A stretch of 64,000 bases of DNA from Leucoraja ocellata (Eukaryota). The notes under the pieces were generated by a model that saw nothing but the letters and a program-made list of their open reading frames with translations, was not told the DNA's origin and did no database searches. The stretch is taken from the NCBI GenBank assembly GCA_036785375.1, contig JAWMAR010000268.1, positions 1,364,001-1,428,000 of the forward strand. The letters are read 5' to 3'. This document shows positions 591 to 63,523 of the stretch, piece by piece (the stretch's first letter is position 1; each line of letters begins with the position of its first letter). The position numbers and the translations under genes are program-made.

Positions 591-806
591 TTCAAATGTA
601 TAATGTCACTCTGCATCTCATGACATCCTAAATTGCTTTATAGTAATCTATGTGGACTGTGTGGATATTACGGGCTGAAGGGCCTGTTTCTGTGTTGTAC
701 AGTTCTATGTAGAGTCCACGTTAGTATTTATTTTGCTATGACTAAATAGGGCAACTTTCTACTGACAGTAGAAATTGGTGAGTAAATAACAGGGCACATT
801 GTTTAC

Positions 807-892
807 CAGATCTCAGGAAAGCCATGGAGCAGCAACATCAACTGCTTGTTCCTCTCGCCAGCTGCCACATAGTGAAATTGCAGCCCTGAATC
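807..892 (-). CDS. EPHX3: Epoxide hydrolase 3-like, coding exon 2 ([29 protein letters not shown])
   Basis: HGFP oxyanion-hole motif of alpha/beta epoxide hydrolases; acceptor ttctacag|GAT, donor TG|gtaaac, 86 nt; joins exon 1 in phase 0. The gene continues beyond the window start. Confidence 0.88.
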
Positions 893-921
893 CTGTAGAA
901 AGAGGATCGAGAGGTCAGTAA

Positions 922-11212: not shown

Positions 11213-11281
11213 TCAGAAGAGATTCTCTTCAAATATTGCCATTAAGTCGCTCTGAAAATTCATGTCAATCGTAGCCGCCAT
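11213..11281 (-). CDS. BRD4: BRD4 last coding exon, C-terminal motif / P-TEFb-interacting domain (MAATIDMNFQSDLMAIFEENLF*)
   Basis: Near-identical to the BRD4 CTM; acceptor gatttag|ATG, TGA at 11215-11213. Confidence 0.96.
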   Translation of the reverse strand: MAATIDMNFQSDLMAIFEENLF

Positions 11282-13080: not shown

Positions 13081-14062
13081 AAAGCAATACCGAAAGCAAT
13101 GGCTTAGAGTTTGCTGCAAAGGAATATCAAAGAAAATCTGGTCATTTACTTGGACTTAAAAGATTTTCCCCATAACATTGGCTGAAAACCTGAGCTAATA
13201 ATATGACCAGGATAACAAAACAGTTTGGAGTCAGAGAGGAAAAGCAAGCAATCATGCATCTCCTCCACCGTTGATTAGGAAATTAAAACCCGACACAAGT
13301 ATCAATAGGAATGGTGATTTCAATGTTAAATTAGATCTAAAAGAAACAAAGGAGGGGGAAAATAATGAATTGAGGAAAAAAAGTACTTTAAAGCCTCAAT
13401 CAACAACAAAAATTTGAAGGAAATGACATTGCAATCTTTCGCTTTTGGTACTATTGAGATTGATTTGCTTTATTAATGCACAGTGATGTTAAATGGGCAT
13501 TTAGACAGGAAATGAATAAACCTCTGTGCATTGTGCTTGTATCTGATATGCAAACATACAAAACAGCTTTCAAGGATGGGAGGAACAGTGTGATGCAACT
13601 CCTACGCAACTTTACCTATATTTCAAATAGGTCCTTTTGTCAGAAGAAACTTGATCATAATTGTTCAAAGATTCAAGTTTCTTCCGCTGCATTCCAAAGA
13701 CTCAACCTGAAACACAGCGCAGGCCAACAATGACTACTTAGTAGACAAATCAAGAAAGGAAGTTGATTTAACAGAGTAATCTTCATCCACAATGGGCCTT
13801 CCTTGTAACAGAGAACTGCTCCTTTCCTGGCACACTTCTACAGGTGCTGAGGTGAGAACATTTTGTGCACAATGAGTTCAGTGGCAATAAGCACCGGACA
13901 CCAAGCATGGCTGGTATACATTAAGCTGGCTGGCAAGAAACGAAGGAAGCAAGGCAAACCTTACAGTAAATGAATTTCACTGTCCCTTGATGCATATGAC
14001 AATAAAGTACAATTGAACTACATCGGCTTGATAGTGCTAAGAAATGGAAAGGCTAGACTTGC

Positions 14063-14289
14063 CGCTGTCTCTCCTGCTCCATGCGGAGACGCTCCTTCTC
14101 CGCTGCCTCGTGTTGCATCTTACGATACTCTTCCTGTGCTTTAAGCGCCTTTTCTCGCTCCTCTTTCTCTCGCGCTGCTCGCCTAAACTGCTCAAAGCTA
14201 TCGCTTGATGATTTTGCCGTAGATGAGGGAGTGGAAGGAGTCTTCTTAACAAGACTTGCCCATGATCCCATGTTCTTGATCTTGAGATC
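14063..14289 (-). CDS. BRD4: BRD4 exon ([16 protein letters not shown]…[26 protein letters not shown]…EQERQ)
   Basis: Highly conserved BRD4 segment; acceptor tttcag|GAT; ends in phase 2 at a GC donor (CG|gcaagt). Confidence 0.94.
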
Positions 14290-36885: not shown

Positions 36886-37619
36886 CCTAATCGCAGAGAA
36901 GCAGGCTCCAGCAGTTTCCCAAACTATCATTTGGGTTGGTTTCAATATTTATCCAGGCATGTTAGTACAACTTCAAGAGGGAGGTACAGCAACTGAATAA
37001 ACATTACACCATTTGGAGCTTATGTCTCCAAAGCATTCATTCAAAATTTAAAGGACAGCACCTCTGTTCAGGAGTGGTATGTTCTTAAAATGTTATAAAT
37101 ACTATAACTGGTAGTGAGATAACACATTTGCCACAGCAAGACCTCATGGAGTTTAACAGGACTATTATTAACCAAATGTGGCACTGTGGCAAATGTCAGT
37201 GAAGATGTTCAGATGCTTGGCCAAGGAGTAGTTTGAGTTATATACAACAAAATATAGAAGTTTATGGGAGGATTTTTATTATTTAAAAGGCATCAGGGTC
37301 TTGAATGCATGCCCGTTGATAGTGAACACAATCAAGAATGGCTCAAGAAATCAGAATGCGAGTTTAAATACCTCAAAGCTGTCCAGCTCGGGAATACTTG
37401 AGTTAGTAGGCTATTAGTCATGTATGTGTTCAAAAAGAAGAATTCAAAAAGGTGTCTATCAACTGGGAGTCAAAGGTAGGTCACCAACAAGAGTAACAGG
37501 CAAAGGGGAATTCTTGTAAGATGAAATTGATTTTGGGTTGACATCGGTTTATAGAAATATGAATGAGCAAGAGCAGTCAGGATTGCATTATTATCTTTCT
37601 TACCTCTGGAATTCATATC

Positions 37620-38425: not shown

Positions 38426-41400
38426 TTCATGCAGAGTATTCTGTTCCTTGGAAAGTATAAGCCAATTATATAGAAATGTAATTGTGGTGTCTGCTAAAAT
38501 TGTCATGGGTGCCAATTTCATGAATCTATTTAAGCCAAGTGGCAACCCTTCTGAATGTCTTTGAACAGTTCTACTTTGTGGTATCTGGAATTAAAATACA
38601 TAACATGGACATGTATTGCTGCTTCCCATTTTAATGATATATCAGCTCAATTAACTCAACTGATAAGAACACAATGTGGCCACTTTATTTCAGCTACAGG
38701 AACGAGTCTGTCTACAAACAAAGCAACTCAATAACTGACACTTGGGTAACAGGCAATGTAAGGTGTTCTAAGGTCCAGTTGTTTAACAGCTGTTTTTACC
38801 AGAAATACAGCTTTCAATCTCATTTTATTAACTGCCAATCACTATGCAAGCTCTGCTTTTTTTCTTTCATGCGATCCATATAAAACAGCTATTCCAACCA
38901 ACCAATCGATCCCTGTGACCCCAAAGTCAAAAGTAAAATACATGTGTTTTAAAAGCAAAAAGAATGTTCACCATTACAAAATATGCAAGTCAAAATAAAT
39001 AAGATATACAATTGCATACAAAACAACAGTTTTGGAACAGTGAATTTTTTTATCACAATAAATTGGAATACAATGTCCAGTTTCTTTTTCCCCCAAAAAA
39101 ATCACATCTGTTTTGGCTTACAAATTTCTTTTTAAAAAAGTAAAAAAACAAAGTAGCCAACGAGTGCTAAAGTTTTGACTGAGGGGCCAGCAATGCCAGT
39201 TCAAAGAGAAGTTAAGGTTTCTGTTCTGCTACTTGGATTCAAAAGGATATTTAACGAAATACCTCGATAACAACATTATTTCTGGTTGAATGCAATGTAT
39301 GAATCCATACAAATATTGATTTTAAACATATGGCTATGATCCACTCTGAAACCCTGCACCAACAACAAAGAAAGAATTGTAATGAGCCATTCCCAACCAT
39401 CACCAATCTGGTCGAGAGACTGGCAAGAGTGACACCATCCTTGATCCCGCGCCAATTTAGATTTAAAGTGATATATTAAACTGTAGTAGCAAATGCACAA
39501 TAATTAGGGCCTTTTTCAGAGACCACACAGCACCATTCTCAGAATAATTCAACCCAATCCTAAAAAAGATTGCAGCACCAATTCCTATCCAAAAGACTAG
39601 GATTTTAGTTCCCAAATAGGCAAATTCAATTTGTTACAAAATAAGGCTGCCACATAATTAACTTTTCTCCAAGAAATGCATTTTAGACTTGCGGCCAAGA
39701 GTCTTTCAAAGGCAAATGTCCAGCCCCACAGTCAAAAACACCTCCAGCGTAAGTATACCAACAATAAAACCAACCACACCATCACAGAATTTGCCCCGGA
39801 AGAAATATCAAGGTTTGAAAACCTGCAGATTAAATCTTTTTATTTATACACTTTTTTCTAAAAAAAGCAAGTCTCACCAGTGTTTAAAATCATGCATGTC
39901 AGATGTGTACAAATTTTAATGCACTTTAAAAAAAAATGAAAGCGTAAAGTTAAAGAATTTCAAAATATTCAGTCTGAAATATTTATGAGCTGAAACGATG
40001 GCTTCAAATTTACCAACAATTCTGAATGGCTCAAATATCACCTGCCTTTAAAAGCAGAACCAATATTGCCATATTGGTCAATTTCTACCGTGACAAACAA
40101 GTGAGATTGTAACTTCCAATGGTGAAGGCAATCACGATAAATATTCAGGGGAATGAGGTTTGATGCAAGTGCATTAAATCCACCAGACTTGAAATACTGT
40201 CACAAATCTCAATAAATTAAAGAAAGATGCAAAGTCACATACAGTGATACTGTAGATTACTTCACTTCCATAAGAATTTCACTAAAGGTTATTGACAGGT
40301 AAGGGAAGATGTTTACTTGCATGACAAGGGTGAAACTATTTATCCTTTTGTGTCAGATCACCAAGGATAGCAGTGGTTGGAAGAATGTAATACAAATATA
40401 AGTGATGCAATACACACAATGGGTGATAACTCCCCAAATAATTTGAATGTCAATAAAGTCATTTGTTCTTCTTTCACTCAATGACTTGTGCTCCATTATA
40501 CATTCTTCTGCCTCGGGAGAATCAAAAGCTGATGGGAGCACCAATAACCTCGGTACAAAAATGCACAAAGAAATCGTTACTGCAGAAAATTCACCCTCAG
40601 TGGGGGTTGCCAGAAATTTCCAAAAGGTGGGAGCTGATCTGAAGAACAAAAATCAAATGCTCTCTGCATCATTGCAACTAAACAGTTTAAAACTTAAAAT
40701 CTTTCTGTGGCATGTAACGCAAGGAAATATTCCAAAGTTCCAAAGCACAATTTGTATCTCTGCAAACCTTGCTGAAAATTCAACAGTAAAATATACTGTG
40801 ATGACAATATGAACTGTAATAGGTGCATATGTTGAGTACAAAGCCGGCCATTTAGATTGAAAATCTGATCACATCTTAATACACCGGCATAATACGATGT
40901 GTACATGGATGACCAACAATCTGAAGGTGAAACCAATGCTTGGCAGAGTAGAAAGGTTCGAGGTTTGAATATTAATCTGTGATGAATCAGTGGATTTGAA
41001 CCAGAATATAACAGCTGGCATTATATCACAAAATTCTCATTGGATTCTCGAGCATTTCTGCAGCACCCGAGTGAAAATTCAAACATCTACATGGGAATAG
41101 GGTATTGGAGATGAACTCAATCAAGCAATGCTGTGCTGCCTCCAGTAATCAAATTATCTTAACATCCAATATGGATATCTAGGAGCGCACGTTTGATAAC
41201 TTTAAGCAGTGCGAGCAACAGCAAAGCACTAAATATGAATTTAATTACAATGTTTCATCCCAAAAATTTGTGACCCATCATATCTAAGAATATGAAATAT
41301 TACTCTCATTGCCAAATTCAATAACATAGAAATTTGAGGAATCGCACGAAATCCATTTGTCCGAACTCGTCTTCACAGGCATATACCCATCGTTGGCCGA

Positions 41401-43650
41401 CAATTCACAAATTTTTATACATCTTTGAAAAAATTGTTCTATATACTTCAACTTTTTGTTTTGGTTTAAATCGAGTTTGCTACATCCCAAAATGTTAGCT
41501 CTCTACAATTAGGCTCTCGCCTTCTCACAAAATAAAGACAGATGGTGCAATATTACCGAGCTGTGCTGTACATTTAAAAATACTTCTCAATACTTGCAAT
41601 TGTATTTTATTAGATGTATTTACTAAATCCAATGTGTTAACTCTGAAGGAAGCTTTTGGACTTCCCAACTCTGTGCAGTTTACATGCCTCAACATCCAAA
41701 CACATCTACGACCCAGCCCCAATACAAGATTTTATCTTGTACTTGTATGATAATCACAGCAGGAACAATGTAATATGCAGCCGGCTGACCTCTCAGTTCC
41801 AAACTCCGCACTCTGTGGCTATTACACAATTCAATCTGTAGAAAGGTACAGCTTACAACTAAAAAAATTTACTCATCTCAAAGATAGCATTTGTGTAAGA
41901 AATCACAATATCCAAAGACCATACATACCGTAACACGCATGAACATTACAAAAATAAAACTGTTGACAATTATCTTGGATATATTAAATACACACAGCAA
42001 GAGCACCTTAATCGGTCTGTAACCGAATCTTGAATGACCAACTAATGTACATAATGAAATTACCCACTAAACTGGAGGTGCACATAATGTTAATTAGAAA
42101 CCTTATGCTCAATTATTCCTAATCAGAATATCAATTACTCATATTTCAGTGGAAAAAATGCTTTGATTTCATGACATTTGGATGGGGGGGGGGGGGGGGT
42201 TAGAGAGAGGGAAAGGAGAGCAACTAAAGAACTCTGAAGGTCAAAATTGAAGAGTTGAAAAATTTGAAATGATCTACAAGACTAGAAAACAAGCTTCCAG
42301 AAAACTTGACCGCACTTTTCCACATTTTTATAATTAGCTAGGTTACGAGTCAGCCCTGTAGACAATTCCTCTGCAGTCAGTGGAAGCAATCAGGAACAAG
42401 GAAGAGGGGGCTTGGGTTAAGGGGTCCTGTCAAATTGCAGCCCTCAAACAATCTTCAGGGCAGAACTCTTGACTGAGTGAAAGCCTGTGTATTAAACATA
42501 TTTTAATGGTGTGCAACTTAATCACAGGATATGATAGGATTTTAGTTCAAATGTTCAGCAATGACTCTGTTGTGGGTAGTGACAATTAACAAGATCTGAC
42601 GTGGTCATATATGCACAACTGGTCTTTTCTGAAAATTATAGTTAAGTGGAAATATCTAGGTGGTAAATTACAAGACCATCATTTTAAACTACGTCTGATG
42701 CAAGAGAAAATATACAAGCAAAGTTTGAAATAACCGGCTCCAAGATTAAGGGACAGCCTTGCAACTAACTAACCGGGCATTTTCTACAATAGTAAAAAAA
42801 AATAATGGTACATAATTAAATAGCTTACTTGCTTTAAATGCGAAATCTCACTGAGTCGACGGCCATGAAGGTGTAGTAGTAGAACGCAGGATGTAGATAA
42901 TTTTTTGCCAATTGTAACAGTTGAAAAGGATAAAGATCTGTAGCCCACCAGGTTTTTTCTCCTCCTTTTGCTGTCCTCTCACTGTTTATATAATCAAATT
43001 TAGACAATGCACATGTACCTTACTGCGCAAGAGTCCACAGTGCACATGGAGTTGGGGAATATCTTGAAACCTGCCCCTTTCACAGCAGATCTGTGTTAGC
43101 ACCAACCATCTGAAATGCTACACGAACTGCACTCAGGTGAACGCCATGTTTTGTAAACAGCATTCCAATTGCATGTCCTGACCAGAAATCCTTCATACAT
43201 TTTTTTTTTAGACAGGTGAAGCAAATTTCATTTGCTGGTAGTCAAACGTCGATCTTTCAAAAGACGAGGTAGAAAAAAACCAATCCTGCTTTTTCCAAGA
43301 GCAAAACAATTTTCTCTGTTGAAGCTGCTTTCTAATTTAAGTGCAACTTAAGCTCTTTTTATGGCTTTCAATGGTCACTGTCAGCATTATTGCACTTTTT
43401 CTATGCAGCTTAAACAGACTAGCGCTAGAATTTCTTCCAGACATGTTGTTCTTTTAACACAAGGAACTACTGGTAAAAAGCTCCATTAATCTGGCAAACT
43501 GTATGTATTGCAGTGATAATTAGAAGTCACTGGTTGTCGGTTGGAAACTACGATGGGTGGTTTACAGAGAGTACGTGGGGCAGAGGGGAAACAGACTTTG
43601 CCAGCGCCAGGCTAGCAACAGGCTCAATTACTGAAAGAATTGACGCTAAC

Positions 43651-43773
43651 CTGTTTCAGAGTCGTTGCTCTCAGAGGAGCTGGAGTCACTGCTACTGTCT
43701 GACTCAGAAGAACTGCTGCTGCTTCTCATCCTTGATGGGCCTCCCACATCCATGCTTACGTCATGCTTCTCAG
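43651..43773 (-). CDS. BRD4: BRD4 SEED exon (AEKHDVSMDVGGPSRMRSSSSSSESDSSSDSSSSESNDSET)
   Basis: Matches BRD4 AEKVDV…[21 protein letters not shown]; acceptor ctttgtacag|CT, donor G|gttagc; 123 nt, phase 1 to 1. Found manually. Confidence 0.92.
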
Positions 43774-44948: not shown

Positions 44949-45470
44949 ATTCGCATGAAAGTTATTAATTTAAGCACAAGTTCAAATTCCTGACTTATTG
45001 GATTCAATCATTGTAGAGTGCTTTTGAATACTCGTCGTGGACTAATGAGGTCAAGGCTAAACGCTGAGAATTATATTTAGGAACAGGCCACATTGCAAAT
45101 TATTTTCATACTTTGAATCAGAATGATTTTAGCAACGGACTACCCAAGTCCAAGACAGCAACTTATGAGTCTTGATATTCCAGCAGCTTCATGGGCATTC
45201 ATTTATGGTAATCAAGTGTGCATCAGGAAGCTATGCTGAATCAAATCGAATGTCTTCACTCAATATAAAGCCACGATGAGCTCCTACTTTAATGCAGCCA
45301 TCATACTTCGAGCATTAAGAATTGATTTTGACATACCTTCCCACTTAATTTAGTTTGCTTTACAATTTTGACAAATGCATTTTTTATTAATTTCACACAC
45401 ATTCCACAATAACTAACAATTGTTACATTAATATGAATAAAGATTAGTCAACTGTTACATTAATATGAAT

Positions 45471-45565
45471 CAGTATGAAGGGTCTTGACCTGAAACATCA
45501 CCCATTCCTTCTCTGCAGAGATGCTGTCTGACCCGCTGAGTTAACCCAGCATTTTGTCTACCTTT
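45471..45565 (+). mobile_element. Short Penelope-derived pLTR fragment
   Basis: TGAAGGGTCTTGACCTGAAACATCACCCATTCCTTCTCTGCAGAGATGCTG…GCTGAGTTA…AGCATTTTGTCTACC. Confidence 0.6.
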
Positions 45566-46150
45566 GAATCAAGATTAAGAGAGCAGGAGAGCTCCCAGTC
45601 TCTCCAACAAGTTCATATTATTGCTTAATAGAATTAGTTTATTATTTTATTTACACCAGCTCGTAAACCTAATCCATGAAAATAATTTGGAAGGGGATTC
45701 AAATCGAACCTGTGCACTCGATATACAAGGATATCCAAGTCCCTTGGACTGCTTTAAAAATTCAGCATTTCTGATTTTTCTACCAAAGCAGATAATCACA
45801 CATTTTTAGACTTTCTATTCCAACTGCCAAATTATTTAGCTTGACTCTATCACTTCTGCACATCCTCAGCACAACTCACATCCACATTATTTTGTGTCAT
45901 TAGAAATGTTACATTTTGTCCCATTGGCTAAAGTGTCAATAACAATTGTGGTAAATTTAGGACCAAAGCTCCAATTCCCATGGCACTCAATGAAAGGGAA
46001 CAATTTATACCCACTATGTTTTTTACTGTCCAACTCTCAATTCAAGCTAGTCTATTAGTTCCAATTCCACATGCTCAAACCTTTTTCGCCAACCCTTTGA
46101 GTGGAAATCAGAAGCCTTCCAAAAATGCAAATGCCCAAATCACACTAATC

Positions 46151-46466
46151 ACGGTGGCGCAGCGGTAGAGTTGCTGCCTTACAGCACTTGCAGCGACGGA
46201 GACCCGGGTTCGATCTCGACTACGGGTGCTGTCTGTAAGAGTTTGTACGTTCTCCCCATAACTGTGTGGGTTTTCTCCGAGATCTTTGGTTTCCTGCCAC
46301 ACTCCAAAGACGTACAGGTTTGTAGGTTAATTAGCTGATATACGTGTAAATTGTCACTAATGTGTGTAGGATAGTGTTAATGTGCGGGGATTACTGGTCG
46401 GTGCGGACTGGGTGGGCTGAAGGGCCCGTTTCCGCGCTGTATCTCTAAACTAAAACTAAACTAAAT
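46151..46466 (+). mobile_element. Near full-length V-SINE (HE1-like)
   Basis: A box TGGCGCAGCGG, B box GGTTCGATC, V-domain, LINE-derived tail GGGCTGAAGGGCCCGTTTCCGCGCTGTATCTC and (CTAAA)n end. Confidence 0.88.
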
Positions 46467-47569
46467 CTATACTAGATATTTCAAAACATTGTGGAGTACA
46501 GAGGCAAATAAATAAACAATGGATCTTTGCCCCAAACATTATGGAGGGCACTGTGTATATCATCTGTATATGTTATTCATTTTCGGGCATATTAACTCCA
46601 TCTGTAAATTTCTATACTAATTTATTTTTATAATATTTAGTATTTAGCATATAACAATATTTTTGGAAGATTTTTCATGTCCATGACATCAAAATATTTG
46701 CCCCCCCCCCCCCCCCCCCCCGGAGCTAAACATTTCCGATTCAGATAAAATAATAATAAAATGGCTAGCGATTAATGTATGTGTGAAAAAACTGATTAAA
46801 ATGTCAGGAGTTCACACAGTTGCACCACAGTTTGTGCACATGCTGCGTAGCTGTGACAAAATAATTATTCACCATTTGAAGTTGTCTTTATTTAATCTCT
46901 TGTTACTTTTCTTGAGTTACAGATTTCTATACAAAATTTAAGTAATATATGGGTCTGAAATCAAGAGGCAAGTAGATAATAGGGCAGGTTAAATGGTGGA
47001 CATCACTGGAGATAGCCTGGTATTTTGTCCTATAGCTTCCGAGCATAACTTTTCTCAGAGACAGTTCATAAGTCATCAAAAAGATTGATTTATTACTTGA
47101 TGTAACAAGATTCGGGACTTTAATCATTCCATTACTGCACCCACTCACATTGAAGTAAGTGAACAGTGGAACATGAAGAACATTGTCTCCATTTATTGTT
47201 ATCATGTTATAAACTTAAACAGGTCCTTGAATCTCCGTGAGCACAGTATAAGCATAATTGACTGCTAGATACAAGTAAGGCATAGGGTCAAATATCAAGT
47301 TACAGACAAGGCAATACTCATCAATAACATACTCTGATAAGGTAGTGCTGGCAATTCATGGAATTTACAAATTTGTCCTTCAGTTTAGATTAGCTATGAA
47401 TTATTTGCTCTCAAAGGTAACTTCAGGCAGGGTTCATTAGACGGCAGTTCGTTTCACAAGAGACATAGATTTTCACTGATGAAACATTCATAGATGATGA
47501 TTTGTGCAGGAGCAAATATTAATGGGCATTTACTTTTGTGTACTGACCAGGTTGTATACTTTTCTAGGA

Positions 47570-47717
47570 TATGAGAGTGGGAGAAAACCGAAGATATCGG
47601 CAAAAAACCCACGCAGGTCACGGGGAGAACATACAAACTCTGTGCAGACAAGCGCCCGTAGTCAGGATCGCACCCGGGTCTCTGGCATTGTAAGGCAGTA
47701 GTCACCGTGTCGCCCAT
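47570..47717 (-). mobile_element. V-SINE 5' portion
   Basis: Reverse complement of the SINE head and V-domain (CCCACGCAGGTCACGGGGAGAAC…GTAGTCAGGATCGCACCCGGGTCTCTGGCATTGTAAGGCAG). Confidence 0.75.
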
Positions 47718-48099
47718 GTTCTTCTACTTTTCCCAGTAAGATAATCATACCTGGCCATAATTAGCATCTCAAAAGTAACCTCAAAGCAACAATTACACAA
47801 ATTCTTGACCCACATTGATTCATGCGTTGCAAAAAACACAGCAACTGGACTCCTCCTCTTTATCTATCCATTTCCCATGTCAGACTCTACACATCTGTCA
47901 CAGATGCAGAACATTGCTAAACAATGAAAATGAATGGCTTGAAATGTACAACTTGTTGCAACTATTGTCAACTATCATTTTCAGCAACTACTACATCGCA
48001 GTGGCCCAAATGAAGCAAGGCAGGTTAATGGTTAAATACAGCTAATCCAGACTTAAAATGCATGCGAGCCAGACTTTGCGTGACTTATTGTGTAAAAAT

Positions 48100-48502
48100 G
48101 AACTGCAGATGCTGGTTTAAACTGAAGATAGACACAAAAAGCTGGAGTAACTCAGCGGGACAGGCAGCATCTCTGGAGAGAAGGAATGGGTGGCATTTCG
48201 GGTTGAGACCATTCTCAGACTGGTTAGGTATAAGGGAAACGAGAGATAGACGGTGATGTGGAGAGATAAAGAACAATTCTGCCATTGTCAGATTGAGGCT
48301 AAATGCTGTTTCCTTTATTATCTTTACTTTTTTTGCATATCTTTCATTCATTTTTCTTTATCTCTGCACATCACCGTCTATATCTTTCGTTTCCCTTATC
48401 CCTAACCAGTCTGAAGAAGGGTCTCGACCCAAAATGTCACCCATTCCTTCTCTCCAGAGATGCTGCCTGAGCCGCTGAGTTACTCCAGATTTTAGTGTCT
48501 AC
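48100..48502. mobile_element. Penelope-derived long inverted repeat (~150-bp arms)
   Basis: 48129-48277 is the inverse complement of ~48350-48501; hammerhead-like core with CpG-type decay at 48411-48438 (CTGAAGAAGGGTCTCGACCCAAAATGTC). Confidence 0.8.
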
Positions 48503-50511
48503 GAGAGACTTATTGACAGGAGAGCAGGGGTCGGGAAGAAAAACGTTCCTCCCAAGGTGAGGATCATGAGTGATTATGACGGAAGATGTTAAGATAACGA
48601 GAACAGATAGCTGTTCATAATGGCAACACTTCTATTTGCAGGGGTTAGGAGAACAATGGAACAAAATGTTAGTTTATGTGCAGATTTGCCATAAACCTTC
48701 CAAACAGTGTGTGACTTGTGTTTAGTCATGACAAAGTAGAGTTAAGAAGAGTATTCAGTAACATGAACAGTGACTGTGCAGATCCCTGGATTGGTTTGAT
48801 CAATTTAAAGATATTAGAGATGAATTTTCAAAGATTATTTATATATTACTTCGGATTTCACCGTACCCAATGGTTATTGATTTAACATACATCATGATAC
48901 TCAAAATGATGGCATAGTCCCATGTACTTTAAACTATTGCAGTCCTGCTTTCGCTTCCTAGCTATCATTTTCAAAATCTTTGATGGTGCTTTAAAAAAAA
49001 TCTTTGTGATGTTTTATTCTTTGTAGAATTTACCTTCCCTGAGAAATTGCTTGAACAAATTCTCTAGTTAAATCTCCAAATATTGAAATGTTCATTTTAT
49101 CTGACCCTCTGCTAGTAACAATGTATCTAAAGCGCTTTCAATCAGCTGGTACTGGACTCACATTAACATAGTCTCTTACCACAATGTTCCTTCATATAAC
49201 CAGGCAAAGTCACCCGGGGGACAAGAAATACAGCAACCGGAAAAACATCACTTCCTTACAACATGGTAATCAAGAAAACTTAACCAAAGAACAAGGAGGG
49301 TTATGCTTTCGTACATTAATGTATTTCTTCAATAACTGACTTCTAAAAATATCTGCATCATTCCATTCAATTACATAAAGCATGCAAGACCATTTTACTT
49401 CCAATTAAATACTTGTTAAGTATAACAATAGCTCAAACGTAGCATTACAGTGTGGTTCCACCCACAACTTCATTGTTTGAGCATAATCATGATTTAACAC
49501 ATTTATCAACACTGGACATATTACAGCCAAGCACTATTGTAGCTTTCTGGGTTTCAGTAGGAATAACCGTAATGAGACCTAGAGTACAAGATCATTCCAA
49601 CTTACCCGCACCACAAAAAACACAGGGCAGGGCAGAAAGGCAATTGCTGCATCCATATCATCATCCATGCTGATACAAAATTGTTCAGCTCAAGCATAGA
49701 ACGAAACCCAAAGGAAAACCGTTTTATTTTTTTGGGAGGCCAGGATTTATTGTCCATCCCAAAATGCCTTTGAAAATGAGGTGGTGAACTGAACTGTTGA
49801 ACTGAATTTTGAACTGCTTCAGAGATTTTGGTGAAGGAACTCCATTGTTGACGATGACTACCAGGATTTAGAACCAGCAATGATGAAATAATAGCAACAC
49901 ACATGCTAATGTCCCATATGCCTAACGTCCCTATTCATCTTAGTGATGAGAGGTTTTTGGCTTGGGAAGACCTTTCCTCGTGATCCTGATGAGAAATTGC
50001 AGTGCATTTGTGGATGGCACACGGTGCAGCCACCGATCCAGGAAAGGGAGAGAAGTCCAACACACTCCCGAATTGTGATAAGGCTTCAGGAGATGATTCG
50101 TTCGCTGAAAGATAATTGTATCTGAGCTGGTCTCATAACCACATTATTGATGTGGCTGGCTCTTTTGAGCTTCTGGTCAATGGTTTGGAGTGGAGTCACC
50201 AAAGTAAAACCAAAACTGGGCAGCAGCCATTTGTCGGCACTGTTAATTAATGATTGAGAGTAGGTAGTAATGTGAAATCATATTTCTTTTTGTGAACGGT
50301 ATATGTGGTCCTTTTTCCACATGATCAAGCAGATACCAGTGTTGCTTCTGGAACAGCTTGGCTGGAGACAGTTCATCAACTGCAATTCTACAATGAGGAT
50401 AACTGGAGCCAGCAGCCTTTATCGTAGCCAGTGTTCGCAGTAGTTTCATGTCACATGAAGTGAATCAAATAGATTGAACACTGTCTTCTGTGAAGGTTTG
50501 ACCATGCACCG

Positions 50512-51058
50512 TGGACCATCTACCGCTGCAACATCGAGAGCATCCTTACCAACTGCATCACAGTATGGTATGGCAACTGCTCTGTCTCCGACCGGAAGGC
50601 ATTGCAGAGGGTGGTGAAAATTGCCCAACGCATCACCGGTTCCACGCTCCCCTCCATTGAGTCTGTCCAAAGCAAGCGCTGTCTGCGGAGGGCGCTCAGC
50701 ATCGCCAAGGACTGCTCTCACCCCAACCATGGACTGTTTACCCTCCTACCATCCGGGAGGCGCTACAGGTCTCTCCGTTGCTGAACCAGCAGGTCGAGGA
50801 ACAGCTTCTTTCCGGCGGCTGTCACTCTACTAAACAACGTACCTCGATGACTGCCAATCACCACCACCACCACCACCCCCCCCCCCCCCCCAACCCCCCC
50901 CCCCCCCCCCCCCCCCCCCCCGGACACTTATTTTTTTTTTTTTTTTTAATTCAAATTGTTTGCTATGTCGCTCTTCAAGGGAGATGCTAAATGCATTTCG
51001 TTGTCTCTGTACTGTACACTGACAATGACAATGACAATTAAAATTGAATCTGAATCTG
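50512..51058 (+). mobile_element. Young Rex1/Babar-like LINE 3' end
   Basis: Encodes YRCNIESILTNCITVWYGNCSVSDRKALQRVVKIAQRITG…HPNHGLFTLLPSGRRYRS (C-terminal region of Rex-type ORF); poly-C tract; ends in (TGAATC)n. Inserted in an older degenerate LINE (~49750-51290). Confidence 0.85.
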
Positions 51059-51569
51059 GTAAAGTATCATTATCAATGGCAAAGGCTTCTTCTTCGGCAC
51101 TAATGTACCAGCTGCCCACTATTGTCAAGTATGGGGATATACTATGAGCTGTTGTTGCATCCCAATAGCATCTTCCTGTCCACCACCATTCATGACTAAA
51201 TGTGTTTGGATTGCAAAGATTTGATCTGATGGTTGAGACTGCTTACTGCATGCTGTCTAACAAATAAATAGTGTTTTGTTGCAGCTTCAAGTCAGAACCA
51301 TACAAACATCAAGAAATCTCAAAATTGTAGTCGTATAAGTTTTCATTTAAAACTAATTCTTGTTTTCTTTAAGGAGTAAATTTCTGGCCCACAACATTTT
51401 GAACCAAGACCATGAGTGTACAGTTCATTTCAGTGTCTTGGTGCTCAGTGGGAAGTGTTGCATCAGTTGCAAAGTGGTCAGGTTTCATCTCATTATTGCA
51501 TTCCAGTAAACAGAATGAAAAAGACAAACAAATGTTGCCAGTCCATTAGATATCCAAAAATCACTTGAT

Positions 51570-52368
51570 ATTGATCACCTGACTGAATGGTACCAGAAAA
51601 ACAACCTTGCTCTCAACATCAGTAAAACTACGGAAATGATTGTTGGCTTTTGAAGAAGCAGCTGAGGATGCACGAACCTGCCTTCATCGACGGTCGGATG
51701 TGGAGAGGGTCAATAACTTCCAAGTTCCTAGGTATGCATATCTCTGAATATCTGTCCTGGACATAGCATATTTATACAATCATAAAGTAAGCCCATCAAT
51801 GCCACAACTAGCTTAGAAGATGGAGGAGTTTCAGAACATTGATGAATACTCTCTTGAATTTATACAGCTGTACAGTAGAGCACATATTGATTAGTTGCAT
51901 CACAGCCTGGTTTGGCAACTCAAACGCTCAGGAACAAAGGAGAGAAAAGTGGTGTATACTGACTGCCCAGTCCGTCAAAGGTACTGACCTTTTCACCATC
52001 AAAGGGATCTACTGGAGGTGCTGCTGAAAAAGGCAGTCAACATCATTAAGAATCCACACCATCCTGCCCATGCTCTCATTTCACTCAAGAATCCTGAAAA
52101 CTGTAATGTCCAGATCCAAGTACAGCTTCTTCCCAACTACCATCGGGAAATTGAATGTTGCAGAACTACGAACTGCCTTGTCTTCGGGCTTCGGCACAAA
52201 TTGTTTTTAAATAAATATATATTCATTTAACTTCTTCGTTATGTTTGTTTATTATATTATCTATTGAGTACTCTGCTTAGAAACCTATTGTGCTGCTGCT
52301 GCACGCAAGAATTTAATTGTTCCATTTTGGTGCATATGATAATAAAACACGCTTGACTTCTGACTTGA
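51570..52368 (+). mobile_element. Older Rex1/Babar-like LINE 3' fragment
   Basis: Degenerate NNLALNISKTTEMI, FKFLG, LLNLYSCTVEHILISCITAWFGNS; ends AATAAAACACGCTTGACTTCTGACTTGA. Confidence 0.75.
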
Positions 52369-53309
52369 ATATCATTGCAGCTGAGTCTCGTTAAAACTTG
52401 TAAAAACATCAATGCCAATGTGTTGCAAAATGAATCACAGCCTTCGTGCTTGTGAAACTTAAATTATGCAATACTTCATGCACTGGATTTAATTCCAAAA
52501 TGCCACAAATTACACAGAATTTTGCAATATTGCAGCTGTCCTTATAAGACAGTTTCGTAAGAAACCAGTGTCTCGATCTCTCAAATACTCTACAAACAAG
52601 GGTGTGATTCTGTGGCTGTGTGGAATGCCCAAATCTGGCATTAACTGTACACTCTTATCTACAGAAGAGATAAACCTCAACCTTCAAAAGTGAGCGTATC
52701 CATACAGCAGTGATAACTGGGAACAATTAAAACAGTCAGGCCTTTCAGTAGCTTGTTACCAGCCATTTGCATTGAAATGCTCAATCATTTAAGAGATTGG
52801 AATGAGAGAGGGGGAGGGAGGAAAAGTGATGTTTCACAATTCAATGCAAGTTTAAATTTATCAACATCAAAAGATGAGGCAAAATCCATCTTGTATCACA
52901 AAGACTTCAAACATGACATAAGAACATTTGAGTAAGCCACTCAGCTCATAAGCCTATTTCCTAAACAAGATGATCATGGCTAATATTTTCCTCGGTTTCA
53001 GCTTCTGGAGTTAAACTCATTTCATTTACTTTCTTAATATATTGACTTCCATCGTGAATATTTACAGCAACCGAATCTCATAAGTTCCTTGGATAAAAAA
53101 TTCCAAAGATTCATCCTCAGTGATGAAATGTCTTCTTATTTCAGTCCAGAACAGCCAACACTTGAATTTGAAACTGTAATCTTTGGTTCCAGATTTCTAG
53201 CCATGCAAACATTATCCTTCCATCAACCTGTCAACCTCCATTACAGTTTTCTATGCTTCAATGTGATCACCTTTAATACTATAGATAAGTCTGTTTAATC
53301 TCTACATAT

Positions 53310-54060
53310 ACAGGTAGTTCTGCTGTAAATGCGATAGTTGAGTTCCTAAGAAACCTTCGGTTATAGAAAATGGAGTTATTAAAAACAATTGAGTTAATGG
53401 GGAGAAAAGTGAGCTAGGGGCTGAGACCAATTAGTTATTTTTCCCCATACAGGGTTTTCAAAAATGTTTTTCTAATAGCTGTAAGTTTAATTTTGTTACT
53501 GAAAGCTGTATGTAACATTATTTAATAGAGTATCATTGCACAAGTGTCGATGGAAACGATTGCGTGTCAATTTCGTAGTCAGGAACTGCAGATGTTGGTT
53601 TACACCGAAGATAGACACAAAATGCTGGAGTAACTCAGCGGGACAGGGAGCATCTCTGGATAGAAGAAATGGGTGATGTTTCAGGTCAAGATCGTTCTTC
53701 AGTCTGAAGGGTCTCGACCCAAATCGTCACCCATTCCTTCAATCCAGAGATGCAGCCTGTCTTGCTGAGTTACTCCAGCAATTTGTGTCTAACTTGCTTG
53801 TCAATTTCTCAAGCCACTGGCCTCTGTTCTTACGAGACAATGGTTACAATGGGACAGTTACATAGAAGATATTTGTCCCTTCAATTTCTCTCCCCCCCCC
53901 CCCGCCCCCTCCCCCTCATCCACCAAGACAGTTTTGTCTCTGCTGGTCAATTTCCAAAGTAACATCAGTTCCCTCATTTCTGATCAAAATTGCATTCTTA
54001 CCAATTTGACCCACATAATACAGTAATGTTCCCTAATTCGTCAATTATGTTATACCCAAT
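53310..54060. mobile_element. Tigger-like DNA transposon with a nested Penelope-derived inverted repeat (53580-53785)
   Basis: Starts TA|CAGGTAGTTCTGCTGTAAATGCG and shares internal motifs with 44440-44948; the nested IR is flanked by repeated TGTCAATTTC. Confidence 0.6.
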
Positions 54061-54939
54061 TAGAGATATGAGTTGAGATTGCAACCTTCACGTGGTCCGC
54101 CCTGTTTTGACAAATGCAATCAACCCGGCGTGCACAATCAAATAGAACAAGTTGTCCTACAACTTTAGGCTGTGCACGACATACGCAAGAAGAAGAGGTT
54201 CTTGGGTTCAGTGTACGAAATTAGAGAAAAGACAGGAGAAGATACAACTATAATCCCATTGCTCTGGTCTGAAACTGTAAATGAAAGAATCATGCTCTCA
54301 CTTTTACCAGTGAACCTCTGGCTTCCTGTTTTAATGTGATACATTTCCATACAAACAATTTTCTATCAGCAGAATTTATGATTTTTAAGTAATTGTTAAT
54401 TTCATATGCTACTGTCATGACAAGAAATAATGATCTGGAAGAACCAGCATTAAAATTGATTTCTCATCATAGGCAGAATGCAGGACCATGTAGAACTCGA
54501 TTTGCAGCAAAGCTTTGAAAAAAAAATAAAAAAATCACATCTTACCCGCTACCTACGATTGCAGTGATTACCTGCAGTACACATCCAGATTAAACAAATA
54601 AGACCGTTTCAATCTATTAAATCACAAATACTGATGAAATCACCACCATACCTCTCAACTGTATGCTTTTTTTTTAATTACGGTGACACAATATAAAGCT
54701 GCACACATTGAAATAGCAGCCAAATTAAACCAATCAAAATCAGGCAATTTACAAATGCTACCAAAAGCCGCATTCTTCTGAAAGCATAACCCAGAATTCT
54801 GTCAATCCACGCATTGCAGTTTGAGAGGTATGTGCACCACAAAATTAAAGCTATTACAAATACGTACAAATTTATTTTAACCTTGGCCCCAACCTAGGAT
54901 AACCTAAGGATCTACTTCACAAGGTTGCACTACACCAAC

Positions 54940-55059
54940 CTTTTATGCCTGGTTTCTTCCCAGAGCTCAGCTGGCCGCTAACGTCATGTAACCTGGTATC
55001 CAGCTCACTCTTCGAGTCTAGCTGGAGGTCATCGTTCGATTTCCCTGGGACTTTTTTCA
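54940..55059 (-). CDS. BRD4: BRD4 exon encoding a BRD2/BRD3/BRDT-like post-ET coiled-coil segment (VKKVPGKSNDDLQLDSKSELDTRLHDVSGQLSSGKKPGIK)
   Basis: Acceptor tgtttgcag|TG, donor G|gttggt; 120 nt, phase 1 to 1, open frame; RLxDVSGQL motif. Inclusion in mRNA is not demonstrable from DNA alone. Confidence 0.82.
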
Positions 55060-57129
55060 CTGCAAACAGCATCACACAACAAGATTTGGACCAAACACTT
55101 TGGTACCATTATACAGGTACAACACAGTGAATAAAAATGACTCTAATTTGGCACATGGGATCAGATGCAAATTGAAGGAAGGAAAAGCAGCTAAAGGGGA
55201 AAAAAAAGGATCCATTCATTGTTTGCAACTTAAAAAGCCAATAATCTAAAAGAGAATTTAGCAAATGTTTGGAAGCATGTAGCGAGGTCATGATAATTTT
55301 GTTTTGTGAAACATAAACCACATTTTAAAAATACTGAAGTATATAGAATGCACAATTCAATTTATTGCCAAAAACATTCGAACCAAAGAGCTGCTCAGAT
55401 GATCAGACCAGAGGGAAAGGGAGTGAGGGTTAAAGAAGATTCCTGGCCACTGATTATAAATAAGTCAACTTCAAAAAAAGAACCATAAAAGGCACATGAA
55501 TTGTGAGGAATAAAAAAACTATTACTTTAACCAAACTTGGACCAAGTTAAATTTAATTTTAACCACTTTCACTCATAGTAAAAGGCTAATGGTTGAAGCA
55601 ACTGGTCAACAAATTTTCTCAACTTTCCCAAACCATATACTAGCTGCCATGACAACCAGAGATTTGCTACGGCAACAGTGGAAGTATCCAGTCTTTTCCT
55701 TCAGCATGGTTAGCATTATAATGAGTTATATAACCCCAAGAAAGTGTTTCAGTGCACCACTTTCGTTCTCATTTTTTTTGTTATGAGAAATATTACCTAC
55801 AATATTTTTCCCCCATAAAGATTTACTTTTATATTATGACGTCACTACTGAAATTCACAATTTTTGCCAAATTCTAAATAAATTTAACTGGAGAAGCCAA
55901 ATCTGGTTCAAGATGAAAAAGAAAATAGTGTACCTCTGAAAACCAGCTGTTGCTCTGATCTCTAGGTTAAGCAGCCTCAAAGATGTCAATACCCAACCTG
56001 TGTGTGCCCATTCCACAAGTCCAATGATGCTGTGACAGTGTAGATCATTTAACAATGATCACATATCCAAAGTAAACATAAGATGATTGTTGTCATAAAA
56101 ACTGAACATTACAAATGTCTTCCAACAAAAAAAAATGCAGAACAAACCACCCAAATCACGGCCTGTTCATGGTGCATAATGAAAACATCATACATCACCA
56201 ATAATTATATCAAAATTCATCCTCACTGGAATCAGTGAATTAATTGGTTATTTATCTCATTTGCAACTACCAAGTTATCAAAATACATTGAAGCAGATTA
56301 TCTACTCTTTGAAGTTAATACAGCAAGTCCTTTTCTCCCATCACCATGCAAAAATCCTACAAATTTGAATATCAATAGCTTCTGCAACAAAGAATAAAAT
56401 GGTGTCGTATATGTACAGGCGGAGAAATTTGTGTTCAATTCTACACGTTTCTGGACTAATTGGGGAGAAAATTAAGTACGGTAAATATCTGGATCTAATC
56501 TAGGCCTTACATATGCGTCCAAAAGTTAGATACTAAGAGCATGCAAATTCAGATATTTATCTCATAGTTTCAAGGTTAAATTACCAGCACAGAAAAGAGT
56601 TACAAAGGTCTAAGTTTCTGAACTTTCCTAAAGCATTTTATTAGACAGTATATTTTTATGTACAATGACATGCTCCTGGCATTTAGAATTTAGAAAATGA
56701 AACTGTCAAAATCAGAGCAAGTTTTCAAGGAATGATGATGCAGAATAATTGTCCATAGATAGTTCTTCTAACTTAAGGATAAACTAGTTGTTACTCAAAT
56801 TGTAGTTTAGTACATTAAATAATGCTAAAGCAGCACGGGATGCGTGTTTTACAGGGGAGAATAGGTGGCCAAAACAAATATTGTTGATTTGCTTAAATCC
56901 AAGATTGCCAAAAGGTGTATTTACAATCATATCCTAAGGGTAGTCATGTATTGATTCTACCCAATCCCACACAGCAAACCCACGATAGGCCCACAAAGAC
57001 AAGAGTACCTACTGTATATATGATTAGCACTGTCTGGTAACATGTACGTTCCTAATGCTGTAAATCTGCCATGGCTTACCTGGAGGATCACATTGTGGGA
57101 CTGGCTAAGACTTCACTAAAGTCAGTTCA

Positions 57130-57197
57130 ATTGGATGATCAGCCAAGGGCCGAATGGCCTACTCCTGCACCTATTTTCTATGTTTCTATGTTTCTAA
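57130..57197 (+). mobile_element. CR1 extreme 3' tail
   Basis: GGATGATCAGCC…AAGGGCCGAATGGCCTACTCCTGCACCTATTTTCTATGTTTCTATGTTTCTA. Confidence 0.7.
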
Positions 57198-60100
57198 CTA
57201 AACCTGAATTGGGCAAGGGTTGGTCTTGTGAAATATTTATTCTCAGTATCACAGTATTTTGATGTATAATGTGAGCCAGCCAGAATACTGGGGCGAAGTC
57301 TAAGAGATTAGGTAATCTCAAATACCTTTATACTCAAATAAAAACAAGTCAATCTATGCAATGTGTTTGACCCACATACGAGTTCCTGACAATGTATCAT
57401 TCCTATCATCGAGATCGGCTATCACCACCAGTTTGAGATTCTCCCATGATGAAACATGCCCTTCCATCTGGGTCAAGAACCCTCAGGATTTTACATGCAA
57501 TCAAGTCTCACTCTTCTAAACTCCAGCAGATGCAAGCCAAGCCTATCCAACCTCATTTTAAATATTTGTCTCATAAACCTCTCTAAGCTGCTTAACATTC
57601 TCAATTTCATACGTTTACTAATGCTGTATGTGTGCTCCAGATGTAGTCCAATAGCCAATGTAACTGAAGCATGAACTTTCTACTTGTGTATTCAATAATC
57701 CTCGCAATAAGATTGTTAGCTTTTCTAATCACTGAGTGCTGGCATACTAACCTTTTGAAAAATAATGCACGAGTTCACCCCGATGCCTCTGCATCCTTAA
57801 GTTTCACAGAATATGATTTCCTATTTTCACTTTACAAAAACATGACTGAACTTATCACTACAAAACGTACTCATACTTTATATGCTATAAACTATTGAGA
57901 TCCTGGTCATTAGATCCCTCATTATAAAGTCCTTGACCGTGACGATTCACTCATCTTCCCAAGGGCCCAACAAGGTGTCGGGACCTCCAAATCTGGACTC
58001 TATTTTAAACACCTCTACTGACAGCTGTACTTTTAGACATCTTGGCATCATGCTCCATAACTCTCCTCCTCGATAAATGACCCATAAGTACCTTAGACAC
58101 TGTTTTTGGTCACTACCATTGATATGGCCTGTGACACCATTAAAAGGACACAAACATTACTGTTAAGTATCCTGGTACATTTGGCTACATTAAAGGCACG
58201 TTTTATTTGTGTCTGTCAGCTAATAGTAGTGACAAAATGTGTTGGCAGCATGGGTAGATTTGCAATAGCATCTGTCCCCACAATAGTGAAGGTCAGAATA
58301 TCATGGCATATAACCATCTCCAATGACAATCTGCAAATAAAAATATCCAAGGACATGTTTTTGTTAGCATCTTGGACAAAGAGTAAATTATACTCTGGTT
58401 TATTTTATTTTGATATGGTGGGATTGTATCATGAGACAAAATGAATTTGTACTGTGTCAGCTCCTTGGAATCAAAAGTAAATAAAAATAACCTAAGTATA
58501 GCATTAGTAATCTTAAGAAACATGTGGATAACTCACTGGAGGATGCAAGAGCACTTGGCCCCCCAGTGAATTATCCATGCATTGAGTTATATTGGAAAAA
58601 GGGAACATTATTTGGATGTAATTTCTCTGTATTCATGGGTATCCTGTACTTGATTAGGCAAGTTTAATGTTGGTCCTGGGTAGCTAACACACCAAGCTTC
58701 CATTTGAGAAGCACCAAATTAGAGAAGTGAATGGTAGTTTAAAATGTGTAAATCTCAAATTTACAGTCAAGTGTACCAGGAATATTTCAAAAGGGGAAAT
58801 ACGAAAGAAATGTGGCTTTGGGCCAATAATCTTCAAATGTTCCAGAATTTGAGGTTTATTGCTAATTGACAACATATTGTATTGTGAACAACTGACTGAT
58901 GGTCCATTTGGCCGTGTAAATTATCTTCCTGCAGTCACTTTTTGGATACGAGAGGAAGCTTCAAATTAACTTTTTTGTGCCATAATTATTTCCTCTGCAT
59001 GAAACATGGATCCGAAGTCAGCGGGAAAATATTGCAGCAAAATGCAATAATTCAGAAGCCAAACACACCACTACATAAAAATAACTCAAATACAGAACAG
59101 GTTGAACCATGAGGTCCATGGAAATTGGTTGGTGTTTAATTTTACATTTGCTGCCTTCTGTAAAATCAGCAAATTCCATCTCCAAACCTGGTGAGTGATG
59201 CCATCAGACTGTTAATTCATGAGGTAAATCTTGTTCCAAACTAAATAGATACCAAAGCACTCCACTATCTAACAAGCAAGCAAGGAGGTGAACAGTTAAC
59301 TGGCCCTGATTGATTACAAGTCCTTTGGACTCAATCCCCTATCCCTGTGAAGGAATGTAGGTGGAAGGGGAGGGAGCGGGAAAAATTAAATAGGTGCATC
59401 CAGGTGGGCCACAGGGGAAGGGGAGTGAAGGTTTGGGTAAGAGAGCGGGTTTTGTAGTTGCATAAAATCAGAGACTTCAAATGTTCATACCGTTGGTATA
59501 TTCTGCTTGGGTGGCTTATAACCCAACAGTACGAACATTGAAATCTCCGATTTTAGGCAAGTACAACCCCCCCCCCTCCATTCTCCCCACCCCCTACATT
59601 CCTTTCAGCTTCACAATTGCAATGTTTCAATCCTTTGTGTCTTTTTTTTACAATAAACGTGACTCGACTTGAATTTCCGCAAATTAAACACAACCTGAAG
59701 CTTGGCCCTGAAGTAAACCTGGCATTTCAATTCTTCCCGTCTTATAATGCCCATCAAGATTACCATCACAACTGTCATTTTAGCGTTCTTGACTTTGAGT
59801 CCCCAACCCAAACAATTACATTGCCATGCTGCACCTCTATCATGCCATGTAGTGCAACTATCCTAGAGGATATCAGCCAGACACTCCTCTCCCTCCTTCA
59901 AGATGTTTCTTCTTTGCTCCTCTAACTGACCCTTATAAGATGACTTCAGTCAGACTAATTAACAAGAAGAGAAGATGAGGAAAAATAAATAAATCACGCC
60001 TTAATAATGGGGATCTGGAATTCACTACCTGACCAGGGTGGTGTAGGGAAGCAGCAACCCATATTTTATTTAAAAAGATGAGCAACTGACAAGATTTAAC

Positions 60101-61341: not shown

Positions 61342-61893
<552 letters not shown>

Positions 61894-62373: not shown

Positions 62374-63305
62374 CTTGTTCTTTATCATGTTGTAGCTTCA
62401 ACTTTCCTCGCTATCCACATCACCATAACCCTCAATGCAAGGGGAAAACTCAAATACTTTGTCCAATTTAACCACATAACTGATGCGTTTTCCCTCCACT
62501 GCTCAAAAAAAAACCCCAATAGTTCTACACAACTGATCACAAATCAGTTTGAGTCACTCTTTCACCACATGGCTAGTTCTTAAATACTACTGTGCCTTTA
62601 AATGATTGAGGAACTATTTGAGATAAAGATGGCACACATTCATTTAGTTCCAATGCAAATGTTTCCGTAAAGTGAAGAGCTTCAACATTAAATCACAGGA
62701 TTCAAAAATAATTTGCCTTACTGATTATTCACCACAATACAAAGCATTATCCTGCTATTTGAAGGAATGGGCAAGCATCCAAAAGATACAAAAACAATTA
62801 GCCAAAGCAGACAAGGTATACGTATGAAAACTAGAAGTTTTATGAACCTTGTCACAAATCCGCACAAGGTAGAACAGCAGCTAAAGTAATGATTCCTTTC
62901 TGGAAACTTTCAAAAAAATATTGCAGTAACACCAAAAACGTCTTCAGAACCATGTGTGAATGGGTGCTCTGGATTTCAGGAGACAGAATCGGAAAACAGG
63001 AAGACACAATAGAATCAAGCTGGTTGGGATCGGACTCATCCTTAAGTTGCATCCAAATTGTGACTTGATCCCAAATGACCAAACTGATCAAACCTGTGAT
63101 CAGACTTTTTTCTCTGGGTCAATGGCCTAGTGCTTGAACCACTCTGCTGTCAACCCCCATATCACCACATACAACTCAAATTATATGGAATTTATTTTTG
63201 ATAAACTAACTCAGACCAGGCGTTCACCTGAAATAATGATTTAACCATGACTGATATTTAACTAGTATTTGAATAACGGAGAAATTAACCTGCAAGCAGA
63301 TTTAC

Positions 63306-63523
63306 CTGGGATTTGCATTGCTCTTCTTTGATCTTTTTGGCTGTTGCTCCTTAGCTTTGCTCTTTCTCTTTTCTTCCACATCATCTTTCTTTTTATGCCT
63401 CTCTTTTTCTTTGTCCTTTTCCTTCTCTTTCTTTTTCTCCTCTTTCTTATCTTTCTCTTTCTTCTTTGGTTTTGACAGTTGGGGTTGGGAAAGGGCAGCC
63501 AGCTGCTCATGTACCGCTTTCAA
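63306..63523 (-). CDS. BRD4: BRD4 motif-B / basic (BID) exon ([27 protein letters not shown]…)
   Basis: Matches [16 protein letters not shown] plus the lysine-rich NLS; acceptor catatag|TTG, donor AG|gtaaa; 218 nt, phase 0 to 2. Upstream bromodomain exons lie beyond the window. Confidence 0.96.

Follow-up and report, generated by a model that had tools for sequence, protein, structure and literature searches.

A weakened, probably optional coiled-coil exon of ancestral BET type in the BRD4 gene of a ray

The window, i.e. the whole 64,000-nt stretch of Leucoraja ocellata DNA that was analysed, lies on contig C268 and carries on its minus strand the ET, SEED, and C-terminal motif (CTM) parts of a BET-family gene. 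The order of the gene is two bromodomains, ET, SEED, and CTM, with the bromodomain exons located upstream of the window on the same contig. The features considered below, in the order in which the gene is read, are as follows.

63302..63523, minus strand: open frame containing the exon of what we take to be motif B/BID, with approximate exon ends.
61542..61828, minus strand: ET-domain exon (Pfam PF17035, E 5e-29), whose top PDB matches are human BRD4.
55060..55061, minus strand: acceptor AG of the coiled-coil (CC) exon, with a U/G-rich, weakly pyrimidine tract upstream, 65 nt 5' of a conserved RL motif.
54940..55059, minus strand: post-ET CC exon of BRD4, 120 nt, phase 1/1, a degenerate homologue of the CC exon of BRD2/3/T, with RNA coverage.
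54938..54939, minus strand: donor GT of the CC exon (AAG/GTTGGT), 55 nt 3' of the RL motif, as in all four paralogs.
43651..43773, minus strand: SEED exon, 123 nt, phase 1/1, its serine run preceded by GGPSR.
43646..43648, minus strand: in-frame TAG in the first bases of the intron that follows the SEED exon; reading through the donor is predicted to yield a short isoform that lacks the CTM.
14062..14289, minus strand: conserved pre-CTM exon, identified by protein matches.
11216..11278, minus strand: final CTM coding exon, with 90% identity to gecko BRD4.
806..907, minus strand: exon of a downstream neighbour, presumably epoxide-hydrolase-like, with a homologous exon (82%) downstream of BRDT on contig C647.

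The original prediction of an AG/GT-bounded, stop-free, symmetric phase-1 exon of 120 nt between the ET and SEED exons was borne out on the minus strand; the residues given for its peptide were correct, but the peptide ended three residues before the end of the exon. The exon is preceded by TTTGCAG, followed by GTTGGT, and has no stop in the frame given by the phase-1 end of the ET exon. Joins of ET, CC, and SEED exons and of ET and SEED exons both translate without stops, so the CC exon is frame-neutral. Splice signals of this kind are common by chance, because the 17,768-nt ET-SEED interval holds 128 comparable AG/GT-bounded, frame-neutral, and stop-free candidates of 90-150 nt, six of them exactly 120 nt long. 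By themselves, the splice signals are thus within chance, and it is the protein homology that goes beyond it. A hidden Markov model (HMM) trained on 48 distinct non-BRD4 CC segments found the CC exon as its sole match in the six frames of the window (E 5e-9; runner-up, E 0.38). No Pfam family covers the exon, and its peptide aligns with the human BRD2 ET-CC structure (PDB 6cui) over 32 aa (E 7e-5) without gaps, as had been claimed from the letters. In the same genome, the CC exons of BRD4, BRD2, and BRDT are 120 nt long and that of BRD3 129 nt, all in phase 1/1; the distance from acceptor to RL motif is 65 nt in the first three and 74 nt in BRD3, which differs in layout by 9 nt at the 5' end only. 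As judged by length, phase, and motif spacing, the CC exon and that of BRD2/3/T are positional homologues.

The 3.44-Gb genome contains four BET loci (C268, C392, C341, and C647), plus duplicate copies on C788 and C2. A maximum-likelihood tree was built from BD1, BD2, and ET (315 columns, 31 sequences), using the four loci and 27 database proteins chosen among the matches for taxon spread. In this tree, the window gene is sister to ten bony-vertebrate BRD4 (98.2/100), which group on their own with 97.3/97; C392 groups with skate BRD2, from which it is separated by a near-zero distance, C341 groups with sawshark BRD3, and C647 is on its own. The tree holds no database-named BRDT; C647 is taken as BRDT by its CTM, its epoxide-hydrolase-like neighbour, and elimination. 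An exon of that neighbour lies downstream of both C268 and C647 and hence does not separate BRD4 from BRDT. In addition, the window gene has a BRD4-type N terminus (73% to gecko over 95 aa) and a CTM, and its core identity is 82-90% to BRD4 versus 74.7% to C647. Among the 120 matches listed for the pre-CTM exon, every paralog-named protein is BRD4 except one cattle protein named BRD2 in UniRef, a label that we judged wrong. Considering that separate BRD2 (C392), BRD3 (C341), and BRDT (C647) loci exist beside it, we assign the window gene by descent to BRD4, not BRDT or BRD3, which agrees with its original naming. The CC of C392 has a methionine shared by every ray sampled, whereas the sharks sampled have leucine at this site, which makes a skate or ray the likely source.

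Several duplicates accompany these loci. C788 carries a near-identical second BRD4 copy, likely the other haplotype, with 35 mismatches per 3115 aligned bases around the exon. The CC exon itself is identical there, and this identity is uninformative on constraint (0 differences versus ∼1.35 expected at that rate). The second BRDT copy (C2:4003088-4003519) has a frame break in its ET exon where C647 is intact, reflecting either an assembly error or a broken allele. A second BD1 exon of equal score (C341:1752600-1752740) lies ∼91 kb upstream of that of BRD3, as a local duplication or an assembly artefact.

We looked for the CC with the HMM in 155 spliced bony-vertebrate BRD4 proteins, and none scored above 0.5 bits, against 34.6 bits for the ray BRD4 exon and 52.5-75.6 bits for the training set. 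These 155 proteins (69 distinct linkers) are the 178 with a BRD4-type ET end minus 23 that run into the intron without SEED. They cover mammals, lizards, newt, gar, and many teleosts, with isoform sets from zebrafish, medaka, carp, eel, piranha relatives, newt, and gecko; coelacanth, lungfish, bichir, sturgeon, shark, and chimaera BRD4 lie outside this sample, and the CC exon itself comes from one genome and a close relative. The absence first proposed for mammalian BRD4 therefore extends to ray-finned fishes and tetrapods (0/155), and the converse, that bony-vertebrate BRD4 routinely has the exon, was examined in the same proteins and not seen. Differences of 27 aa and 14 aa between isoforms of newt and gecko BRD4 were discarded, being located outside the ET-SEED linker. 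The GGPSR-type motif before SEED has a similar distribution, being present in the window gene and in 49/81 non-BRD4 proteins, and in 0/155 bony-vertebrate BRD4.

Outside bony-vertebrate BRD4, the CC is present in lamprey, hagfish, and invertebrate BET proteins. Among the 120 matches listed, 21 of the 23 CTM-bearing invertebrate proteins have a CC by pattern, which supports the proposal that ET, CC, and CTM together form the pre-duplication architecture, and the other two have a degenerate CC. These two (P0072 and P0108, one named from aphid) are possible cases of parallel relaxation. Ten teleost brd3a-type proteins (P0073, P0075, P0080, P0082, P0083, P0098, P0099, P0101, P0103, and P0104; characins and electric eel where named), known as protein models only, run from ET straight into SEED and appear to have lost the CC exon independently, in another paralog.

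Wider searches returned no second degenerate CC of this type. A search of the CC-exon peptide among longer proteins gave five candidates and no match, an uninformative negative, as chondrichthyan BRD4 was also missing from the ET and pre-CTM matches listed from that collection, which does contain BRD2 of sharks and rays. When 1.84 billion representatives were scanned with HMMER, 13 matches resulted, i.e. 12 intact CC and one unrelated repeat, and none with the degenerate pattern. None of 462 pattern matches in metagenome contigs was confirmed as a degenerate CC, the open stretch around the exon had no exact-sequence match, and the ESM Atlas gave no result for the exon. In the literature, subscription papers and automated annotations aside, a CC exon in chondrichthyan BRD4 was the subject of no paper that we found; the exon may already stand in automated shark annotations. 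The most parsimonious reading of this distribution is a single CC loss on the bony-vertebrate stem, although the data from the sampled groups would also fit two.

Four RNA runs of the 24 listed (X7, X21, X22, and X24) were examined, chosen by species or study label. In X24, the CC-exon bin has a depth of 24.1 versus 24.5 for the SEED bin (ratio 0.99, scaled to exon length). In X21, which comes from a second organism with five listed differences in the ET exon, the depths are 22.3 and 24.9 (ratio 0.89, scaled likewise), and the strand bias of the CC-exon reads (3.96 versus 0.26) is like that of the flanking exons. In X22, a single-cell run, the CC exon is covered over 44 bases, and SEED likewise barely (depth 1 at 43736). 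The CC exon is thus transcribed in two species. Relative to the ET exon, its depth in X24 is 0.45, a figure affected by the loss of overhanging reads from short exons and by intron reads within the bins; these depths put inclusion at roughly half to most. Also in X21, ET-exon depth drops from ∼359 to 40 towards the 3' end (window 61579-61786), a pattern not seen in X24 that is either a library effect or an RNA end.

The assembled contigs of X7 bear on how the exon is spliced. The ET contig ends at 61542, the SEED contig holds the SEED exon from position 4, and a 177-nt contig of depth 14.2 holds the CC exon at positions 31-150 and no other letters. When five scenarios were simulated with k=31, only a mixture of inclusion and skipping reproduced these contigs exactly; intron retention gave 178 nt and position 3, and inclusion alone and genomic DNA also mismatched. 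Skipping is here deduced from contig geometry in a single run, which would look the same if a different upstream exon ended in AAG, and the 15 RNA joints listed, ahead of 1597 more, are all repeats. As far as this geometry goes, included and skipped mRNAs likely coexist, in line with the suggestion that the exon could be alternatively spliced.

Exon sequence and donor may both reduce recognition of the exon. The purine fraction of the CC exon is 0.58 versus 0.72 in all three paralogs, with its purine runs broken, and its donor GTTGGT is further from the consensus donor than the paralogs' GTATGT/GTAAAC. Under general splicing rules, by which donor strength and purine runs promote exon inclusion, the weaker donor and lost purine runs likely lower inclusion of the CC exon.

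The CC exon has changed far more than the neighbouring ET domain. Of 17 CC residues that are otherwise shared, 8 changed on the BRD4 line, compared with 2/58 in ET (Fisher p 5e-5), and CC changes in the paralogs amount to 1/10, 2/11, and 3/12. All eight replace E, K, or Q by D, N, S, T, or H, six of them through a third-position purine-to-pyrimidine change. Since 6 of the 17 positions conserved at ≥85% bear residues found in 0/48 homologues (E>D three times, K>S, K>T, and Q>H), the binding face of the CC may be dead. The four hydrophobic positions are kept, together with R, D, G, and Q of the C-terminal motif. The original expectations that the hydrophobic register persists and that the changes lower helix propensity are both supported, as the L-L-V-L stripe stands at i, i+4, i+7, and i+11, and mean helix cost is 0.48 versus 0.31-0.38 in the paralogs (Pace-Scholtz scale). 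Single-sequence AlphaFold models give a helix over residues 17-32 in the ray BRD4 exon (pLDDT 68) and over 8-30 in the BRD2 exon (pLDDT 85). By these low-confidence, weak but matched predictions, the ray BRD4 exon would keep only the C-terminal half of the helix.

Selection on the exon is relaxed, yet saturation at third codon positions and retention of the hydrophobic stripe make neutrality unlikely. The exon matches the paralogs at 20-23/27 sites for codon positions 1 and 2 and at 5-9/27, i.e. chance level, for position 3, with dN of 0.32-0.36 and dS of 1.3 or saturated. On the BRD4 line, 4/41 informative first/second codon positions changed versus 6/7 third positions. This conservativeness was matched in 0.4-2.5% of stop-free neutral simulations, p-values that are optimistic because the simulation starts from the paralogs as ancestor and counts their selected changes. 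Retention of the four hydrophobic residues alone occurred in 30-33% of neutral runs and is unremarkable. A permutation test, in which changed positions avoid conserved ones (p 0.015), was set aside, as the training set had been picked by a same-position pattern. These signs of lasting purifying selection sit poorly with the earlier idea of an exon on the way to loss.

The same figures can be read as those of a tolerated relic, a non-binding exon that survives as frame-neutral in a disordered linker. In this form, which we regard as possible if somewhat unlikely, selection would only purge stops and aggregation-prone changes, a point that we hold at the same level. The excess of change over ET, the replacement of invariant E, K, and Q residues, the halving of the predicted helix, and the fact that bony-vertebrate BRD4 and the ten teleost brd3a-type proteins manage without the exon all speak for it. 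However, the contrast between first/second and third codon positions, the lack of any indel relative to BRD2 and BRDT, and the apparently high inclusion in two bulk RNA runs speak against a segment that is simply carried along.

Another possibility is that the segment has been repurposed, favoured changes having turned a neutral helix into an acidic Ser/Thr stretch, a candidate CK2 substrate extending the SEED region in place of a coiled coil. CK2 has the consensus S-x-x-D/E, and two of the new serines form such sites. CK2 regulates BRD4, according to a passage of PMC8578508. All eight BRD4-specific changes replace long by short side chains, and the helix net charge is -4 versus 0, 0, and -1 in the paralogs. 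Still, E>D, K>N, and Q>H each need just one third-position transversion, as simple relaxation would produce, S-x-x-D/E sites are common in acidic peptides, and the C-terminal hydrophobic stripe is retained, so we consider repurposing improbable. It is very improbable that the exon is constitutive, or an artefact of a mis-assembled gene or mis-assigned paralog, because, although the X24 and X21 depth ratios to the SEED bin are near 1, the X7 contigs require a second path into the SEED exon ending in AAG, as the ET exon does, and the identical exon on C788, four separate BET loci, and clear tree argue against an artefact.

We therefore favour, as the probable reading, an ancestral, optional, and weakened CC exon that is under relaxed purifying selection in ray BRD4 and that bony-vertebrate BRD4 has lost. 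Under this reading, cartilaginous-fish BRD4 would retain and transcribe the ancestral post-ET CC exon of the BET family, likely as a cassette exon whose partial inclusion probably results from its weak donor and broken purine runs. The included form would place a shortened, weaker predicted helix between ET and SEED, i.e. a C-terminal half-helix with its hydrophobic stripe and RLxDVSGQL end, and may endow BRD4 with BRD2/3-type ET-CC activity in weak form. Skipping would yield the bony-vertebrate layout. In the most parsimonious history, BRD2/3 would have lost the CTM after the duplications and BRDT kept both parts, while BRD4 relaxed its CC and later deleted it on the bony-vertebrate line.

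Compared with BRD2/BRD3 ET-CC (PDB 6cui), the ray segment shares the position between ET and SEED, the length and phase of the BRD2 exon, the gapless match, the stripe, and the DVSGQL end. It differs in lying in BRD4, in the replacement of about half of the conserved charged residues, in a predicted helix of 16 versus 23 residues with a net charge of -4, and in being likely skippable. Bony-vertebrate BRD4 (tetrapods, gar, and teleosts) resembles the ray gene as its orthologue by tree, N terminus, ET end, Pro/Gln-rich tail, and CTM, and shares the layout of the ray skip isoform, but has, in the 155 spliced proteins, neither the CC nor the GGPSR-type motif before SEED. BRDT (C647 in the ray genome) and invertebrate fs(1)h-type BET proteins likewise combine ET, CC, SEED, and CTM in one protein, with a CC that is intact (bar 2/23 invertebrate proteins) rather than degenerate. 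The teleost brd3a-type proteins, which join ET straight to SEED, offer a precedent for clean loss of a symmetric exon, although that loss is complete, independent, and in another paralog.

The CC is the best-mapped feature separating BRD2/3 from BRD4, and BRD4 is described as lacking it in a passage of PMC11939847. Because the ray BRD4 exon is present and transcribed, CC absence is not diagnostic of BRD4, and this description applies to bony vertebrates and not to the whole BRD4 orthology group. The ray locus holds both the CC and the CTM tail, which dates CC loss after the cartilaginous-fish split. A recent preprint (bioRxiv 10.1101/2025.09.20.676678) proposes in one passage that BRD4 gained its P-TEFb tail and then lost initiation function. 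Ray BRD4 and the invertebrate proteins instead indicate that this tail is ancestral; Drosophila FSH-L, as part of PMC5133849 states, has the CTD. The result is an evolutionary refinement, not a new mechanism.

Functional work on the CC frames what the included form might do. Short BRD4 acquires BRD2-like activity from the CC together with ET (Werner 2020, cited after a passage of PMC8446420), and parts of the preprint above (bioRxiv 10.1101/2025.09.20.676678) report that TFIID binding needs the CC-containing BRD2 C terminus and call the residues responsible unmapped. Yeast Taf7 binds the ET domain itself, according to a passage of PMC13373324. The ray exon, with eight substitutions and likely two isoforms, offers a natural mutant series for mapping the important CC residues. 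It is also a candidate for a regulated splice switch in cartilaginous-fish BRD4, between BRD2/3-like initiation (TFIID/PAF) and BRD4-like elongation activity, which we think unlikely on present data. If true, one gene with an optional CTM tail would yield four BET architectures, CC and CTM each being present or absent, and would be a living halfway stage towards the split of functions that bony vertebrates fixed by exon deletion.

Some further observations concern the rest of the gene. Read-through of the SEED-exon donor (43646-43650, minus strand) meets a stop one codon in, making a short isoform without CTM possible, and such an isoform including the CC exon would have the BRD2/3 layout. An X7 contig of 199 nt (depth 3.2) lies at 43300-43493, with ATTAAA/AATAAA at ∼42507 and 41611. 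The window contains a simple tandem repeat at 37600-38500 and, at 45200-57250, several strongly transcribed interspersed intronic repeats that dominate read depth. Upstream of the window, a glycine-rich insertion of ∼20 aa precedes BD2 (C268:1450402-1450845); gecko BRD4 and the BRD2/3/T loci lack it, and gar BRD4 has extra residues before BD2 too.
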